A stretch of DNA of 64,000 nt from Escherichia phage Barry. A model generated the notes under the pieces. That model did not search any database and was not told the DNA's origin. It saw only the letters and a list, made by a program, of their open reading frames with translations. A program made the position numbers and the translations under genes. Shown in pieces: positions 5,603 to 57,614 of the stretch. Position 1 is the first letter of the stretch. Each line of letters begins with the position of its first letter. The stretch lies in sequence record LR880803. One strand, 5' to 3'.

Positions 5603-6337
5603 ATGAAAGAGATGACAGAACAAGGTAAGGAGATTTTTAATCTCTTAAAAACTGGTAAAGGGTTCTCTAACCCGCTTATTACTGGTGCAGCAGTTCTCGG
5701 TGGAACCGTAGCTGCTTCTACATCACTTGTAAGCTCTATTAGTTCTGTAACAGACCCTACAATGAAGGAGAAACTTGTTGCTGCTGGACTTACAACAGTC
5801 CTTCTAAACAGCTTTACAACAAGCCTTACAAGCACTACAGCAACTACTAAAACTCTGACAGACTACGGTCAAAAATCTATTGATGAGTTTTCATCACGTA
5901 TGCAGGTAGCAAAGGGGTATTCCAATGTTATGGGTGCAGCAGGAGAACAAGTTGGTTGTACACCATTCAGTGGTATCATGGGTGTTGCTACAGAGTATGG
6001 TCAAAAAGCTATTGACATGATGAACAGTACACTAGATAGTGTTAATGGTGTGTTAAGTGACTTACAAGATGCTATTGATAAGGGTCTTGATACTGTTTCT
6101 GATTTAGCTAACCAAGCTGTCAGTAAGATTAATGAAGGTATTTCAAAGATTACAGCTTATGCAGATGAAGTTGTGCAGATGATTGAAGAAGAAGCTGCCC
6201 TTATTGCAGAGTACCTTAAAACGAATATCAATGGGTTCTTAGCAGGTATCTTACCAGACTGGTTTGACGATGCTTGTAAAACTGGTGTGATTGACACTAT
6301 TGCAACACCAGAAATGAAGAGCGCATTACAGAAATAA
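5603..6337 (+). CDS. hypothetical protein (Thr/Ser-rich N-terminal half, alpha-helical C-terminal half)
   Basis: ATG at 5603 with SD aaaggtg; the track start at 5540 overlaps tRNA-Phe and is rejected. Confidence 0.5.
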   Translation: MKEMTEQGKEIFNLLKTGKGFSNPLITGAAVLGGTVAASTSLVSSISSVTDPTMKEKLVAAGLTTVLLNSFTTSLTSTTATTKTLTDYGQKSIDEFSSRMQVAKGYSNVMGAAGEQVGCTPFSGIMGVATEYGQKAIDMMNSTLDSVNGVLSDLQDAIDKGLDTVSDLANQAVSKINEGISKITAYADEVVQMIEEEAALIAEYLKTNINGFLAGILPDWFDDACKTGVIDTIATPEMKSALQK

Positions 6338-6338
6338 T

Positions 6339-6431
6339 GGAAGATTAACCCTAAAAGGTAAGGGAGCAGTTTGCTAAACTGCCAGTAGCTGAGAAATCGG
6401 TGTACCAGTTCAAGTCTGGTATCTTCCTCCA
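6339..6431 (+). tRNA. tRNA-Ser (anticodon GCT), long variable arm
   Basis: 93 nt; perfect acceptor ggaagat/atcttcc, perfect anticodon stem gcagt/actgc with loop ttGCTaa, long variable arm, T-arm ACCAGTTCAAGTCTGGT, CCA encoded. Confidence 0.75.
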
Positions 6432-6435
6432 ATTT

Positions 6436-6511
6436 GAATCCGTGACAGAAATGGATATGTGCCTGTCTGCAAAACAGGTTTATAAGGGTTCGAGTCCCTT
6501 CGGATTCTCCA
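6436..6511 (+). tRNA. tRNA-Cys (anticodon GCA)
   Basis: Perfect acceptor gaatccg/cggattc, perfect anticodon stem cctgt/acagg with loop ctGCAaa, T-arm AAGGGTTCGAGTCCCTT, CCA encoded. Confidence 0.75.
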
Positions 6512-14713: not shown

Positions 14714-15111
14714 GACTCTTAAACAGACACAGCTTTGTAGTAAAGCGTAAAGTCTCTGAAGATGGTTATTATAATGATGATGGTGATTGGGTAGCTTCAC
14801 AAGATATTGTAGAGGTTAACTGTAAAGGTAATATCCAGCCATATATCAAAGGTTCTGTAAAGAACGGTACACAGATTGCTTTACCGGAAGGTATTAGACT
14901 TACCGATACAAGAATCCTGTATACCACATATAAGCTTAGAACTTCAGATGATGTAGAGTGGAATGAGTCTGATATTGTTATGATTGATGGTCATGAGTAT
15001 GAAGTATTTATGACTATGGATTGGTCACAGCAATTAGCCCATACGTCCCATTATGAATATATCATTATTAGAAGGGATAAAATGAATGCAGTTAGAAACA
15101 GCAGAACTTGA
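14710..15111 (+). CDS. hypothetical head-tail joining protein
   Basis: ORF overlapping the upstream gene by 4 nt. Confidence 0.4.
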   Translation: MRLLNRHSFVVKRKVSEDGYYNDDGDWVASQDIVEVNCKGNIQPYIKGSVKNGTQIALPEGIRLTDTRILYTTYKLRTSDDVEWNESDIVMIDGHEYEVFMTMDWSQQLAHTSHYEYIIIRRDKMNAVRNSRT

Positions 15112-15685
15112 AAAAGGTCTAGTTAGAACCTTAGTGGATGTTATTGGTCACAGATTAGCTCGTGATAAAAATAATAGGCCAAACGTAATTAGGGCTTACC
15201 CTTCTGATAACTCAAATGACAAAGGTTTAAAACCTGACCAGCCATTTATCACCGTATATTGTCAAGATGCTGCAACACCTTATGGTTGGGTTCTTGATAA
15301 GTTTGTTGAGGATGATGTAGTTTGCTACAGAATTGCTTTTCAGATTCCTGTATTGATTACGGTAAATGGTAAAGGTGCTCACAGTATTATGCTTGAGCTT
15401 AAACAACGATTAGAGATGAGTTCAGTCAGAGATTTAATCCTTGAAGAAACAGGAGCTACAGTACTAGACACTGGAGCTATCCCGAATGACTATACTTATC
15501 TCAATACAGATTTCGAAAATTCTGCGCCTCTTGTTGTAACTCTTGTAAAAAACTCAGTCCTGAAAGATGAACGCGGAAGTATTATTGAGCGTGTCATTGT
15601 TGATGGTGAGTTGGTTTATGAAGAAGGACAAGAGCCACCAGAATATACTATCCATCTAGATGTAGACTCCAAAGGGGTAAAATAA
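15086..15685 (+). CDS. hypothetical tail completion protein
   Basis: ORF starting at ATG 15086. Confidence 0.4.
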   Translation: MQLETAELEKGLVRTLVDVIGHRLARDKNNRPNVIRAYPSDNSNDKGLKPDQPFITVYCQDAATPYGWVLDKFVEDDVVCYRIAFQIPVLITVNGKGAHSIMLELKQRLEMSSVRDLILEETGATVLDTGAIPNDYTYLNTDFENSAPLVVTLVKNSVLKDERGSIIERVIVDGELVYEEGQEPPEYTIHLDVDSKGVK

Positions 15686-17038
15686 ATGTGGAATCCAATT
15701 GTTAATGTAGATATTACATTGAACACCGCAGGAACTACAAGAGAAGGTTTTGGTTTGCCACTATTCTTAGCTTCAACAGATAACTTTGAAGAAAGAGTAC
15801 GTGGTTACACTTCCTTAACTGAAGTTGCTGAAGATTTCGATGAAAACTCTGCTGCATATAAGGCTGCTAAACAACTTTGGAGTCAGACTCCTAAAGTAAC
15901 TCAGCTTTATATTGGTAGACGTGCTATGCAGTACACTGTATCAATTCCTGATGCCGTTACCGAAAGTACAGACTACTCAATTACTGTAGCTGTTGGCGGT
16001 GGAATTTCTCAACCATACCAGTACACAGCACAAGATTCAGACACTGCTGAGGTAGTGTTGCAACAGTTTAAAACACAGATTGAAGCTGACCCAACAATCA
16101 AAGATAAGGTTTCTGTGAATGTAACTGGTAGCAATGGCTCTGCCACAATGATTATTACCAAAGCTGGTGATAATGACTTTGTGAAAGTAACAACCACAGC
16201 ACAGACTGTATATATTGCAAGTACAACTGCCGATACAGCAGCAACTGCTCTGGCAGCTATCGAAGCTTATTCTACCGACTGGTATTTCATTGCAGCAGAA
16301 GACAGAACTCAACAGTTTGTCTTAGCAATGGCTTCTGAGATTCAGGCTCGCAAGAAAATCTTCTTTACAGCTAACTCGGATGTAACAGCACTGCAAGGCA
16401 CAGAACTAGCCAGTGCAAATGATGTTCCAGCACAGCTTGCTAAGAATATGTACACTCGTACAGTTTGCTTGTGGCATCACGCAGCAGCAGAAGATTACCC
16501 AGAGATGGCATACATTGCTTATGGTGCTCCATATGATGCAGGTTCAATTGCTTGGGGTAATGCTCAGCTAACTGGTGTAGCAGCTTCTCTACAACCATCT
16601 AATCAGAGACCTCTGACAAGTATTCAGAAGTCTGCTTTAGATGTACGTCACTGTAACTTTATTGACCTTGATGGTGGTGTTCCAGTGGTTCGTAGAGGGA
16701 TTACTTCTGGTGGGGAATGGATTGATATCGTCCGTGGTGTTGACTGGTTAGAATCAGACCTGAAAACTTCTCTGAGAGACTTGCTAATTAACCAGAAGGG
16801 TGGTAAGATTACTTATGATGATACTGGTATTACCCGTATTCGTCAAGTCATTGAAACCTCTCTGCAAAGAGCAGTCAACAGAAACTTCCTGTCATCTTAC
16901 ACAGTTAATGTTCCTAAAGCCTCTCAAGTTGCTTTAGCAGACAAGAAAGCGCGTATCCTAAAAGATGTTACCTTCGCAGGTATCTTAGCAGGGGCTATCT
17001 TGGATGTTGACTTGAAAGGTACAGTGGCTTACGAATAA
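15686..17038 (+). CDS. putative tail sheath protein
   Basis: 450-aa ORF immediately upstream of a small tube-like ORF and the chaperone/tape-measure genes, as in contractile tails. Confidence 0.5.
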   Translation: MWNPIVNVDITLNTAGTTREGFGLPLFLASTDNFEERVRGYTSLTEVAEDFDENSAAYKAAKQLWSQTPKVTQLYIGRRAMQYTVSIPDAVTESTDYSITVAVGGGISQPYQYTAQDSDTAEVVLQQFKTQIEADPTIKDKVSVNVTGSNGSATMIITKAGDNDFVKVTTTAQTVYIASTTADTAATALAAIEAYSTDWYFIAAEDRTQQFVLAMASEIQARKKIFFTANSDVTALQGTELASANDVPAQLAKNMYTRTVCLWHHAAAEDYPEMAYIAYGAPYDAGSIAWGNAQLTGVAASLQPSNQRPLTSIQKSALDVRHCNFIDLDGGVPVVRRGITSGGEWIDIVRGVDWLESDLKTSLRDLLINQKGGKITYDDTGITRIRQVIETSLQRAVNRNFLSSYTVNVPKASQVALADKKARILKDVTFAGILAGAILDVDLKGTVAYE

Positions 17039-17053
17039 TAGAGGTAAATTGGA

Positions 17054-17500
17054 ATGGCTATGTATCAGCAATATTCCCCTAAAGACGTTGTATGTAGCTG
17101 GAACGGCATTGCTATTGAAGGCTTTGCTCCAGACTCATTCTTGCGTCTACAGAGAACATCACCACTTGTGACACCAGTTGTTGGTGCAGGTGGTCAGGTT
17201 GCTCTGACAAGAAATGCAGACAAGACAGGCACTATTGAGATTGAGTTAATGCAGACTTCTCTCTCTAACCAGATGCTTTCTGCAATTCAAGCTAAACAAG
17301 ACAATATGGAACTTGAAGAAGATATCTCTTCTAACTTCGTAATCTACGACCCATCAGGCTCTGTTCTGGCAACTGGTATTAACGCTTGGTTGCAGGAGTT
17401 ACCACAGATTGAACTTGGTCGTGACCAGAACTCTAAAACTTGGATTTTTGGTTGTGAGAAGTTAGACTACACTTCTACAATTCCAGCGTCAAGTGTTTAA
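17054..17500 (+). CDS. putative tail tube protein
   Basis: 148-aa ORF between sheath candidate and chaperones; followed by a terminator. Confidence 0.5.
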   Translation: MAMYQQYSPKDVVCSWNGIAIEGFAPDSFLRLQRTSPLVTPVVGAGGQVALTRNADKTGTIEIELMQTSLSNQMLSAIQAKQDNMELEEDISSNFVIYDPSGSVLATGINAWLQELPQIELGRDQNSKTWIFGCEKLDYTSTIPASSV

Positions 17501-17511
17501 TAAATCCTATA

Positions 17512-17545
17512 AGGGGGAGACTTTAAAAGGTCTTCCCCTTTTTTG
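17512..17545 (+). terminator. rho-independent terminator
   Basis: Hairpin ggggagac-tttaaaag-gtcttcccc followed by TTTTTT. Confidence 0.6.
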
Positions 17546-17573
17546 TTTCTTTTAAAAGTATTAAGGAATCACA

Positions 17574-17972
17574 ATGAAAACAGAATCTAGAGTAATTAAT
17601 GGTAAGAAAGTAAATATCGTTCTGCTTGGGGCAAGAGATGGTATTAAGATGTCTATGAAGTTGGGTAAAATTGTTGTTCCAACCTTTGCACAGATGCTAT
17701 CAAGTCTGACTGACAAGGATAAGAAAGAAGCTCCAATGGTTCCATTTAAAGAACTTGTTGAAGCTTGTTTTGACAGAATTGAAGAAATTAACCTTGAAGA
17801 GATGGCAACCCTGTTATTTCAAGGGGCAACTGTTGATGACTTCCCACTTAATATTGATACGTACTTCCAAGCAAACTACGGTGAATTTATTGATTACCTA
17901 GCATTTGCGCTGGAGGCAAACTTCGGAAGTTTTTTCGAAGCAAGCATTTTCAAAAGCCTAACTTCTCAGTAA
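17574..17972 (+). CDS. tail assembly chaperone (G-like)
   Basis: Small acidic ORF upstream of tape measure; contains the slippery heptamer T_TTT_TTC at 17930-17936. Confidence 0.55.
   Translation: MKTESRVINGKKVNIVLLGARDGIKMSMKLGKIVVPTFAQMLSSLTDKDKKEAPMVPFKELVEACFDRIEEINLEEMATLLFQGATVDDFPLNIDTYFQANYGEFIDYLAFALEANFGSFFEASIFKSLTSQ
17930..17936 (+). promoter_or_regulatory. -1 programmed ribosomal frameshift slippery site (T_TTT_TTC)
   Basis: Heptamer is in X_XXY_YYZ register with the 17574 frame; the -1 frame stays open from 17933 into the ORF at 17975..18214. Confidence 0.6.
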
Positions 17973-17974
17973 AC

Positions 17975-18213
17975 ATGGGTAATACTCTACAGACACCACT
18001 GACTGATGCTGCTGTAGAGGCAACCTATGAAGAAGCAGACGAGATGAAATTTGTGCTTGCTATTTATGGTATGGAAGGGTGTAAAGAAACACTTGACCAA
18101 CTCTTTGCTATGACATTCTCTGATTTATTATCATTGAGACAATTTCTTGAGATTCAGAGGTCGTATAAAGAGGAAATTGCTTACAACGAACTTAGAAGAG
18201 CAGGAAAAATGTA

Positions 18214-18214
<1 letters not shown>
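17975..18214 (+). CDS. tail assembly chaperone frameshift extension (GT-like C-terminal part)
   Basis: ORF in the -1 frame relative to 17574..17972, contiguous with the slippery site; also has its own ATG. Confidence 0.5.
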
Positions 18215-26230
<8,016 letters not shown>

Positions 26231-54904: not shown

Positions 54905-57049
54905 ATGAACAAAGTACAGATTATTAAAAAGAATGGCTCACTTGAAGAACCCGATATCAAAAAAGTTTTAGCAGCAGTAACTAAGTCAGCTAACAGGGTT
55001 GGATATAAAGAACTTCCACCAGATGTTACCCAAGCTCTTGAGTCAGCATTTATGAGGATTCTGGTAAAGTCCACTAAGCAGAATAATTTGCTCATCTCGG
55101 TAAATGATATTCACAGTATTGTTGAGGGTGCTTTGGCAGAAGTCAATCACGAGATTTATGAGTCTTACTCAACATATAGAAATTACCGTAAAGAGGTTGC
55201 TCAAAATTGGGACGAGCTTTACCAAAAGACTAGGGATACACTCTTCTTAGGTGACCGTGAAAATGCTAACTTTGACAGTAGTTTAATTTCTACAAAAGGC
55301 TCAATTATTCGTGGTTACTTGACTAAAGAAATCTTTAAACAGTACCATTTAACACCAGAGGAACTTGAAGCCATTGAAAAAGGGTTTATCTACATCCATG
55401 ACTTAAGAGACCTAATTTTTGGTGGTATCAACTGTTGCCTGTTTGACATCGGCAAAGTACTGAAAGGTGGCTTTGAAATGTCTGGTATCGAATACTGTGA
55501 ACCAAAGTCTGTGCTGTCAGCCTTACAGGTTATTGGTGATGTAGTTCTTTCAGCAACTGCACAGCAATTTGGTGGCTTTACTTTAGCAGAGATTGATAAG
55601 GTACTTGTGCCGTATGCTAAAAAATCTTTAGTGTACCACTCAGAGAAAGCTGAAGAGTACGGAATCCCTAAAGAGCAACACTATAATTACGTAATGGAGC
55701 AATTACAGAATGAGTTAACACAAGGTTTCCAATCTCTTGAAATGAAACTCAACACTGTTCCTTGCAGTCGCGGTGATTTTGCATTTACTACTCTGACATT
55801 TGGCCTGTTGGAACCAGATATGCACAATGAAGATAACCGTCTTCAGTTTATGATTGCTAATACAATCCTTAATGTAAGGATGAACGGGCAAGGGAAAAGC
55901 AAAAAACCTGTTGTTTTTCCTAAACTTGTGTATATCTATGAAGAGACAAGACATAAACTTGATGTATGCCAAGCAAGGTTGTTTGAAAAAGCTATTGAGT
56001 GTTGCTCTAAAGCGATGTATCCAGATTTCTTAAGTGTATCTGGTCATGGTGCTGTAGCAGATGCTTTTGAGCGTTCTGGTAAGGTGATTTCACCGATGGG
56101 TTGCAGAGCTTTCTTGTCTCCATATCTTAATGATAACGGAGAGGAGTTCTATGTAGGTCGTGCTAACATCGGTGCTGTTTCTTTGAACTTACCAATGATT
56201 TACCAGTATTCTAAAGAGAATGGTTTAGATTTCTGGAAAGAGCTTGATAAGTACCTAGAAATGATTCGTAGTTTCCACAAGAAACGCTATGAAATGATTG
56301 CCAATATGCCAGCAAGTTCTAACCCTCTTGCATTTACACAAGGTGGTCTGTACAAAGGAACTAAGAAGCCTACTGACAGGGTTGGTTGGGATATTGTGAA
56401 GTCCTTCACAGCTTCTTTTGGGGTTACTGCGCTTGATGAGCTATCTGTTCTTGCTGAAGGTAAACGACTTCATGAAGTTGGAAGCTATAGTTTTGCATAT
56501 GATGTTCTGGCATACATCAACATGAAAACTGAAGAGTTTAAGAACGAAGATGGCTTCTTGTATGCGGTATATGGCACTCCAGCAGAATCACTTTGTGGAA
56601 CTCAGTTAAAACAGTTCAGAGATATGTTTGGCGTTATTAAAGGTGTCTCTGACAAGGAATACTTTACAAACAGTTTCCATATGAATGTTGCAGCAGACAT
56701 CTCACCATTTGAGAAGCAGGACTTAGAAGAGCCATTCTTCCATATCTGTAGAGGTGGTAGAATCCAGTATGTAAGAGTAGCTAACCCAGAAAACTTAACA
56801 GCACTTAAAAGTTGTATTACCAGAGGGATGTTGAAGGGTTTTTATCAGGGACTTAACTTTGACTTAGCAATCTGTGAACATTGTGGTAACAGACCAAAGG
56901 CTGATGTTGAAGAATGTGAGGTTTGTCATTCACACGATATCTCTGTGATTAACAGGGTGTGCGGGTACTTGTCATTCACAAAAATTAAAGGTCAGTCTCG
57001 AATGAATGACGCTAAGATGGCAGAAATTAAGGATAGGGTTTCTATGTAG
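54905..57049 (+). CDS. nrdD: anaerobic ribonucleoside-triphosphate reductase (class III, NrdD)
   Basis: 714 aa with N-terminal ATP-cone-like region, C-terminal glycyl-radical motif NRVCGYL, and CxxC zinc-site motifs (CEHCGN, CEVCHS). Confidence 0.8.
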   Translation: MNKVQIIKKNGSLEEPDIKKVLAAVTKSANRVGYKELPPDVTQALESAFMRILVKSTKQNNLLISVNDIHSIVEGALAEVNHEIYESYSTYRNYRKEVAQNWDELYQKTRDTLFLGDRENANFDSSLISTKGSIIRGYLTKEIFKQYHLTPEELEAIEKGFIYIHDLRDLIFGGINCCLFDIGKVLKGGFEMSGIEYCEPKSVLSALQVIGDVVLSATAQQFGGFTLAEIDKVLVPYAKKSLVYHSEKAEEYGIPKEQHYNYVMEQLQNELTQGFQSLEMKLNTVPCSRGDFAFTTLTFGLLEPDMHNEDNRLQFMIANTILNVRMNGQGKSKKPVVFPKLVYIYEETRHKLDVCQARLFEKAIECCSKAMYPDFLSVSGHGAVADAFERSGKVISPMGCRAFLSPYLNDNGEEFYVGRANIGAVSLNLPMIYQYSKENGLDFWKELDKYLEMIRSFHKKRYEMIANMPASSNPLAFTQGGLYKGTKKPTDRVGWDIVKSFTASFGVTALDELSVLAEGKRLHEVGSYSFAYDVLAYINMKTEEFKNEDGFLYAVYGTPAESLCGTQLKQFRDMFGVIKGVSDKEYFTNSFHMNVAADISPFEKQDLEEPFFHICRGGRIQYVRVANPENLTALKSCITRGMLKGFYQGLNFDLAICEHCGNRPKADVEECEVCHSHDISVINRVCGYLSFTKIKGQSRMNDAKMAEIKDRVSM

Positions 57050-57056
57050 CATACAA

Positions 57057-57614
57057 ATGAATTACGAACTAATATATAATGCAATTATTAAGAAGGCACA
57101 TTCTGAAAGGGGTGTGCCTCTTACATACTACAAATGTCAAGGTAAGGGTTATGAAAGACACCATATCATACCAGTATGTCTAGGTGGCGATAAAATTAGT
57201 GGAGATAATATTGCTTTACTTACACCTAGAGAGCATTATATAGCTCATAAACTACTGGTTAAGATGTATCCAAACAATCATAAGTTATGGTTTGCATGGA
57301 ACAGGCTAGCTCATGATGGCCTAGATAGGAAAATATCATCCAGAGACTATGAAAAGGTAAGGGCTTTGAACTCGAAAGCTCTATCTATTGTGAATAAAGG
57401 TAGGGTTTTCACTGAAGAACATCGAAGACGATTAGGAGAATCTCAAATAGGCAATACAAAGTCAAAAGGTTGTAAGAGGTCTATAGAAACAAGGAAGAAG
57501 ATGTCAGAAGCCGGAAAAAAGCCAAAGAAAAAGAAAACTTGCCCTCATTGTGGCATGACTGGTGGTGCTGGTAACATGACTCGATATCATTTTGACAATT
57601 GTAAGAAAAAATAA
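57057..57614 (+). CDS. HNH homing endonuclease between nrdD and nrdG
   Basis: HNH motif YERHHIIPVCLGGDKISGDNIALLTPREHYIAH; C-terminal CPHC zinc-finger-like motif. Confidence 0.6.
   Translation: MNYELIYNAIIKKAHSERGVPLTYYKCQGKGYERHHIIPVCLGGDKISGDNIALLTPREHYIAHKLLVKMYPNNHKLWFAWNRLAHDGLDRKISSRDYEKVRALNSKALSIVNKGRVFTEEHRRRLGESQIGNTKSKGCKRSIETRKKMSEAGKKPKKKKTCPHCGMTGGAGNMTRYHFDNCKKK

Follow-up and report, generated by a model that had tools for sequence, protein, structure and literature searches.

A probable programmed -1 ribosomal frameshift joining the tail assembly chaperone frames of Escherichia phage Barry

Introduction

The siphovirus lambda produces its tail assembly chaperones G and GT through a slip site reading G_GGA_AAG, and the shift, as Levin et al. 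reportedly found in 1993, needs no strong 3' structure. Phage P2, which has a contractile tail, is said to produce E and E+E' by a -1 frameshift in a small gene between the tail tube and tape measure protein (TMP) genes, in work attributed to Christie et al. in 2002 and to Xu, Hendrix and Duda in 2004. Here, we analyze positions 17574..18214 of a 64,000-nucleotide stretch from Escherichia phage Barry (sequence record LR880803; the whole stretch is called the window below), where a programmed -1 ribosomal frameshift very probably gives rise to two tail assembly chaperones, one short and one long. The locus resembles P2 in the frameshift and in the gene position in a contractile-tail phage, although the P2 proteins belong to a different family and the two systems were likened by description only. 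In lambda, the TMP is coated by G while tube subunits are recruited by the T domain, with neither form found in the virion (PMC5009743). Unlike in lambda, the predicted partner at the Barry locus is a contractile-tail tube, and the locus showed no sequence similarity to lambda G. Escherichia coli dnaX combines a slippery heptamer with an upstream Shine-Dalgarno (SD)-like stimulator at a spacing of 9-14 nucleotides (nt) (PMC5009743), and the Barry locus has a candidate element of this kind, GGAGG at 13 nt. dnaX also has a strong 3' hairpin, a shorter shifted product and the heptamer A_AAA_AAG, and the GGAGG is not found in all relatives of the Barry locus.

The closest described systems are the Felix O1-like Citrobacter phages Moogle and Mijalis, for which the genome announcements state that the chaperone of the tape measure is subject to frameshifting during translation (PMC4319497, PMC5543628). 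In the GenBank record of Moogle, the orthologous site is spanned by a join of two pieces, the only such join among the records inspected. Both phages belong to the Ounavirinae and share with Barry the orthologous gene pair and the same TTTTTTC in the same register, with a -1 extension of 93 amino acids (aa). They differ in that G is only ~75% identical and the 0-frame tail of Moogle is slightly longer. Because the frameshift was published for Moogle and Mijalis and is annotated in the record of Moogle, it is already known for close relatives and is of the ordinary G/GT type.

Annotation of the locus is less consistent across records. Positions 15000..21000 of the window match Escherichia phage vB_Eco_Tribble, a Felix O1-like myovirus of the genus Felixounavirus (OX016465.1), at 100% identity and share 97-98% identity with Felix O1, wV8, Bas63 (JohannRWettstein) and ~200 other phages. 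The Tribble record annotates neither the downstream open reading frame (ORF) at 17975..18214 nor a frameshift join, and the records of Felix O1, wV8, Bas63, finno and JLBYU32 contain two separate small ORFs, as do most of the other Felixounavirus records inspected. The original genome papers of Felix O1 and wV8 mention neither a frameshift nor a chaperone. Since records list two small proteins or omit the downstream ORF, the predicted 213-aa product is missing from protein databases, and the practical value of the finding is an annotation fix. The understanding of tail assembly chaperones is left unchanged. The modest additions made here are the family-wide invariance of the heptamer, with NNT TTT TTC kept at a Ser-Phe-Phe motif in every Phage_TAC_15 phage relative sampled, and a bacterial locus in Buttiauxella where a duplicated in-frame gene appears to replace the slip site.

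Slip site and overlapping reading frames

The initial annotation of the window, made from the letters alone, had proposed a TTTTTTC heptamer in the X_XXY_YYZ register within a tail assembly chaperone gene, followed by a -1 frame open through 18214. Codon positions and stop codons bear out both points. The features of the core locus are:

17574..17972, + strand: tail assembly chaperone gene (Pfam Phage_TAC_15, PF21822) with the 0-frame product G of 132 aa and 14.8 kDa
17930..17936, + strand: slippery heptamer T_TTT_TTC with UUU in the P site and UUC in the A site, both decoded by tRNA-Phe GAA
17936..18214, + strand: -1 frame T segment (phrog_4963), an open frame of 92 codons plus stop that would form the C-terminal part of a 213-aa G-T fusion
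17936..17972, + strand: dual-coding overlap in which the -1 frame begins while the 0-frame of G runs to its end, with suppressed synonymous variation
17975..18214, + strand: ORF of 79 aa with an ATG at 17975..17977, the start used by gene callers

The chaperone ORF reads GGA AGT TTT TTC GAA around the slip site, with codons AGT, TTT and TTC starting at 17928, 17931 and 17934, respectively. The heptamer sits 36 nt ahead of the 0-frame stop. In the -1 frame, a TGA at 17891 is followed by open sequence until the TAA at 18212..18214, and the ATG at 17975 lies in the same frame. A shift at the heptamer would thus join G residues 1-121 to 92 new residues, and the predicted product (MKTES...NFGSFF, continued after the junction by RSKHFQKPNFSVNMGNT...AGKM) has 213 aa and 24.3 kDa alongside the 132-aa G. 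TTTTTTC is the sole in-register XXXYYYZ motif in the chaperone ORF, and no further in-register motif of this kind was found within the 79-nt stretch with an open -1 frame.

The long -1 extension stands out against the background of the window. As a chance control, 69 in-register heptamers were identified in the 66 ORFs of at least 100 aa. The median -1 extension was 4 codons and the next longest 35, compared to 92 codons at the chaperone heptamer, which is also the only one of the 69 to open a long frame running past the 0-frame stop. A further in-register heptamer, A_AAA_AAG, lies at 57515..57521 in the ORF 57006..57614, a homing-endonuclease-like gene (phrog_655), and this motif is among the most efficient -1 heptamers in E. 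coli reporters (PMC4066793). Its -1 frame is no longer than 17 codons and closes ahead of the normal stop, hence the motif there is probably a chance occurrence.

Both parts of the predicted fusion belong to chaperone families, in line with the identity initially assigned to the gene pair. G matches Phage_TAC_15 at 1.2e-19 (71.5 bits, cutoff 22) as well as phrog_1613 (7.9e-49) and phrog_3840, which are both PHROG tail assembly chaperone families. The T segment matches a further tail assembly chaperone family, phrog_4963, at 2.8e-55. The score against phrog_3840 rises from 146.9 bits for G alone to 162.8 bits for the fusion, and the match of the fusion runs through residue 151. Solved structures of the tail assembly chaperone fold include HK97 gp13 (2OB9) and YqbN (3KLU), credited to Pell et al. 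in 2013. The fusion sequence had no match in the PDB, and a Foldseek structural search returned nothing significant. In a database of 5.8 billion proteins, the fusion query retrieved only short forms of 124-136 aa and no in-frame or annotated fusions, and the T segment alone retrieved an uninformative set of 6 short ORFs.

Conservation of the heptamer across chaperone lineages

We regard comparative conservation as the decisive evidence for the frameshift. An Ounavirinae-level set comprised 11 lineages covering Felixounavirus, Mooglevirus, Suspvirus, Kolesnikvirus (Erwinia M7 and SeKF_13), Pectobacterium phage Arno18, "Listeria" phage LPML1 and three metagenomic relatives. Within this set, G identity drops to ~39%, and TTTTTTC is found in register in all lineages at 36-54 nt before the 0-frame stop, with -1 extensions of 92-95 aa ending at or just ahead of the TMP start. 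A second set of 13 distant relatives (28-50% identity) was drawn from IMG/VR plus one Erwinia metagenome-assembled genome (MAG). All 13 have TTTTTTC in register and -1 extensions of 79-106 aa. When bacterial genomes were scanned using a chaperone profile, one locus only was added, in the Erwinia MAG, where the heptamer is present. The conserved G/GT-type pair put forward in the initial annotation is supported at this depth, with the slip site and the relation of the two frames kept in 22 of 22 diverged sequences and TTTTTTC in register in 31 of 31 IMG/VR loci.

The invariance extends to positions that the protein sequence leaves free. The Ser-Phe-Phe motif is encoded as AGT TTT TTC in all 11 Ounavirinae-level lineages, while both TTC and TTT are used at three further invariant Phe columns nearby (7/4, 7/4 and 9/2) and the Ala, Leu, Gly and Asp codons vary freely. 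Downstream of the heptamer, codons in the overlap at 17936..17972 are fixed (Ala GCA in 11/11, Lys AAA in 10/10, Ser AGC in 8/8), unlike the upstream codons. Such a loss of synonymous variation after the heptamer is expected for dual coding. Across the diverged sequences, NNT TTT TTC is invariant in 22/22 and the run is exactly TTTTTTC and never longer. In two distant relatives, the Ser codon changed from AGT to TCT and retained the T of the X position.

The heptamer might alternatively be a by-product of the conserved Ser-Phe-Phe motif, with a decaying or non-functional downstream ORF and no fusion. The motif is indeed invariant in the protein, and some T-richness would be expected anyway. 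However, codon choice is fixed beyond what the amino acids need. From the codon usage of the phage in the window, Ser-Phe-Phe is expected as NNT TTT TTY in ~32% of cases per lineage, against 22/22 observed, and by our own arithmetic the chance of fixed codons in ~9 deeply separated lineages is ~3e-5. The switch in Ser codon family still preserves the T, and even at 12-30% identity the downstream frame has lost neither its length nor its conserved motif. In addition, the Buttiauxella locus described below has no T-run and appears to have gained an in-frame fusion gene. The probability that the heptamer is such a by-product is close to negligible.

The same data bear on slippage during transcription. 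RNA polymerase might add one U at the T6 run, after which standard translation would yield the identical G-T protein. The homopolymeric run itself and a small hairpin just 5' of it are compatible with this mechanism, given that a one-base insertion leads to the same protein as a -1 shift. In bacteria, though, transcriptional slippage has been described for runs of ~9 A or T (PMC5009743), whereas the run here has 6. Furthermore, all 22 diverged sequences keep exactly TTTTTTC, always in the register for tandem tRNA slippage, which is a need of ribosomal but not of polymerase slippage. We consider a transcriptional origin of the fusion extremely unlikely.

Downstream frame as a domain of the fusion

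The downstream -1 segment is supported as a conserved protein domain rather than an independently translated gene, judging from its sequence across lineages. The -1 segments share the motif Y....CK[ED][ST]L..L..M[TS]F.D...L......EE and could be aligned down to 12-30% identity. Homology of the T segment extends over 19 lineages, with the in-frame Buttiauxella protein included. In Erwinia M7, SeKF_13, LPML1 and Arno18, the -1 frame has no Met at its head or close to it, and the frame is still open from the heptamer. In these phages, annotators leave a gap or call fragments.

Two independent genes would be the main alternative. The 79-aa ORF would then be translated from the ATG at 17975, for instance by ribosomes that terminate at the TAA (17970..17972) and reinitiate, and the heptamer would be incidental. 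Most GenBank records annotate the locus in this way. The initiation context argues otherwise, as among 53 genes this ATG pairs most weakly with the anti-SD (-0.1 compared to a median of -6.0 kcal/mol) and is even weaker than the median of all ATGs in the window (-2.2 kcal/mol). Kolesnikvirus, LPML1 and Arno18 have no Met around the corresponding position, which is likewise difficult to reconcile with a separate gene, as is the invariance of the heptamer at synonymous positions. The conserved -1 residues RSKHFQKP.F are encoded upstream of the ATG and align with the in-frame Buttiauxella protein. Hence, the ATG at 17975 is probably not a real start, and two independent genes are very unlikely. 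A predicted hairpin at 17974..18029 pairs CAUGGGU, which includes this ATG, with ACCUAUG and would bury the ATG. A CCCC(N)..GGGG stem is found at the equivalent position in Moogle and SUSP1 and not in Kolesnikvirus.

An in-frame counterpart in Buttiauxella

The chromosome of Buttiauxella noackiae (JPRU01000001.1; L044 4001..4986) encodes a TAC_15 gene in which Ser-Phe-Phe is written TCA TTC TTC, with no T-run. The gene is followed by a separate ORF of 201 aa and then by TMP_3 and Dit-like genes. The 201-aa ORF has a TAC-like N-terminal part and aligns with the Barry fusion over the predicted junction (NFGVFLSFVVKPFVKPDF vs NFGSF--FRSKHFQKPNF; E 5e-13, residues 81-208). By this alignment, the ORF is an in-frame equivalent of the G-T fusion, encoded directly where the slip site is absent. 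It lends support to the reality of the fusion and to the position of its junction. Tandem duplication appears to have replaced the frameshift here, and the locus suggests that in evolution separate genes for G and an in-frame GT can take its place. Upstream of the Buttiauxella genes, no PHROG matches were found and no sheath-sized gene is visible. The locus may represent a non-contractile prophage or a tailocin.

Taken with the invariant heptamer, the conserved -1 domain and the lineages without a start codon, the in-frame fusion in Buttiauxella favors the initial proposal that a fused product is made beside the short one.

Gene neighborhood and virion proteins

The chaperone gene had also been placed between the tube and tape measure genes, and domain matches on both sides agree with this position. 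The neighboring features are:

15686..17038: sheath-like protein gene (DUF3383/E217_gp31_N)
17054..17500, + strand: tail tube gene (Pfam PF11681 at 3.2e-07), orthologue of Bas63 gp14
17511..17550, + strand: intrinsic terminator-like hairpin with a 13-bp stem and a T-tract, located after the tube gene and ahead of the chaperone gene; the Tribble and wV8 records label it a terminator
17563..17567, + strand: chaperone SD sequence AAGGA (anti-SD duplex -6.1 kcal/mol, close to the median of the genes in the window)
18214..20442, + strand: TMP gene (Pfam TMP_3, PF20155, at 2.3e-17)
20442..21239: Dit-like tube initiator gene

The orthologues in Bas63 were assigned by cryo-EM, with gp13, gp14, gp17 and gp18 being sheath, tube, TMP and tube initiator, respectively. 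As a predicted strong terminator, the hairpin at 17511..17550 would leave the chaperone and TMP genes less transcribed than those for sheath and tube. At the distal end of the locus, TAATG at 18212..18216 overlaps the stop of the -1 frame with the TMP start, and ribosomes finishing the fusion would end exactly at the TMP initiation codon.

Virion mass spectrometry of Felix O1 detected gp63 (48.9 kDa, sheath), gp64 (16.3 kDa, tube), gp67 (80.3 kDa, TMP), gp68 and gp69, and did not detect gp65 and gp66, which are encoded between the tube and TMP genes (PMC3185647). The main text of the Bas63 cryo-EM paper makes no mention of gp15 and gp16, nor does the PhageMaP main text, consulted for per-gene fitness, mention these two Bas63 proteins. 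As negative evidence from the literature, the Felix O1 and Bas63 virion data are consistent with chaperones being absent from mature virions.

Proposed mechanism and its weighing

We suggest that most ribosomes would read through the chaperone mRNA and stop at 17972, yielding the 132-aa G. A minority might slip back by one base at U_UUU_UUC, where the two tRNA-Phe in the P and A sites would re-pair from UUU-UUC to UUU-UUU. Slipped ribosomes would go on in the -1 frame to 18214 and yield the 213-aa fusion, and a fixed shift frequency could set the ratio of the short to the long form. If the two forms act as lambda G and GT do, their common N-terminal part would coat the TMP and the additional C-terminal domain would recruit tube subunits, with the tube and then the sheath polymerizing to the measured length. 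Neither chaperone form would remain in the virion. The anatomy of the locus, its family membership and its conservation are observed here, and slippage itself, its frequency, the binding partners of the two forms and a stimulatory role of the upstream GGAGG are inferred.

Several points weigh against a programmed frameshift. The peptide pattern used to find the distant loci demanded Ser-Phe-Phe and set no codons, and relatives without the motif may be under-sampled. We found no experiment showing the fusion protein for Ounavirinae, and the published statements are at the level of annotation. The ATG at 17975 lies 2 nt after the 0-frame stop, and some separate T could be made by reinitiation. 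No conserved downstream structure was detected, with RNAalifold returning 0 pairs across the 11 Ounavirinae-level lineages, and the upstream GGAG is missing in 8/22 relatives, including all Kolesnikvirus. Reporter motifs without stimulators reached only 2-10 x a background of 0.055% (PMC4066793), and the shift efficiency at the chaperone heptamer could therefore be very low. In favor of slippage, the same E. coli reporters, from Sharma et al., identified UUY A-site codons and all-pyrimidine heptamers as being among the more shift-prone motifs (PMC4066793).

Stimulatory elements and phage tRNA

A downstream stimulatory structure, for which a search had been proposed at the outset, was rejected after single-sequence folds and the RNAalifold alignment gave none. 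The first 54 nt 3' of the heptamer fold no better than shuffles (z = +0.95). The nearest 3' hairpin, at 17974..18029, begins 37 nt downstream, compared to the 5-9 nt of hairpins or pseudoknots that stimulate -1 shifts, and is not significant against shuffles (z = -1.74). At this distance, it could not influence a ribosome positioned on the heptamer.

Upstream of the heptamer, two overlapping features were identified:

17912..17916, + strand: SD-like GGAGG, a candidate frameshift stimulator located 13 nt 5' of the heptamer
17910..17926, + strand: small hairpin CUGGAG-GCAAA-CUUCGG (-6.5 kcal/mol) that holds the GGAGG and ends 3 nt before the T-run

For -1 shifts, stimulators of the SD type have been reported at a spacing of 9-14 nt (PMC5009743). 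GGAG is present 11-13 nt upstream of the heptamer in 14/22 relatives, compared to ~0.09 expected for the encoded Leu-Glu-Ala from codon usage. A stimulatory role of the GGAGG is plausible, and the element may act as a lineage-dependent enhancer. The hairpin and T-run together (17910..17936) were also considered as an internal terminator. This was rejected given the weak stem, the placement of the T-run 3 nt past the stem and the 0.9 chance matches per region.

The phage genome encodes a tRNA-Phe(GAA) at 5511..5586, one of 26 tRNA genes, within a tRNA cluster at 1257..6511. The tRNA decodes both slip codons and occurs in most of the same phage group, and homologues are present in 286 related phage records, Erwinia and Citrobacter phages included. 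Instead of following passively from the heptamer, the shift rate might be tuned by the phage through the partly sequestered GGAGG or through this tRNA, and either could set or alter the G:GT ratio in the course of infection, yet we consider such tuning unlikely.

Two records retrieved in these comparisons carry unexpected host labels. LPML1 (OK283618.1, 'Listeria phage') carries an Ounavirinae chaperone locus, and GU169904.1 ('Staphylococcus phage SA1') carries an identical tRNA-Phe. The Gram-positive host labels or the assemblies of both records look doubtful.
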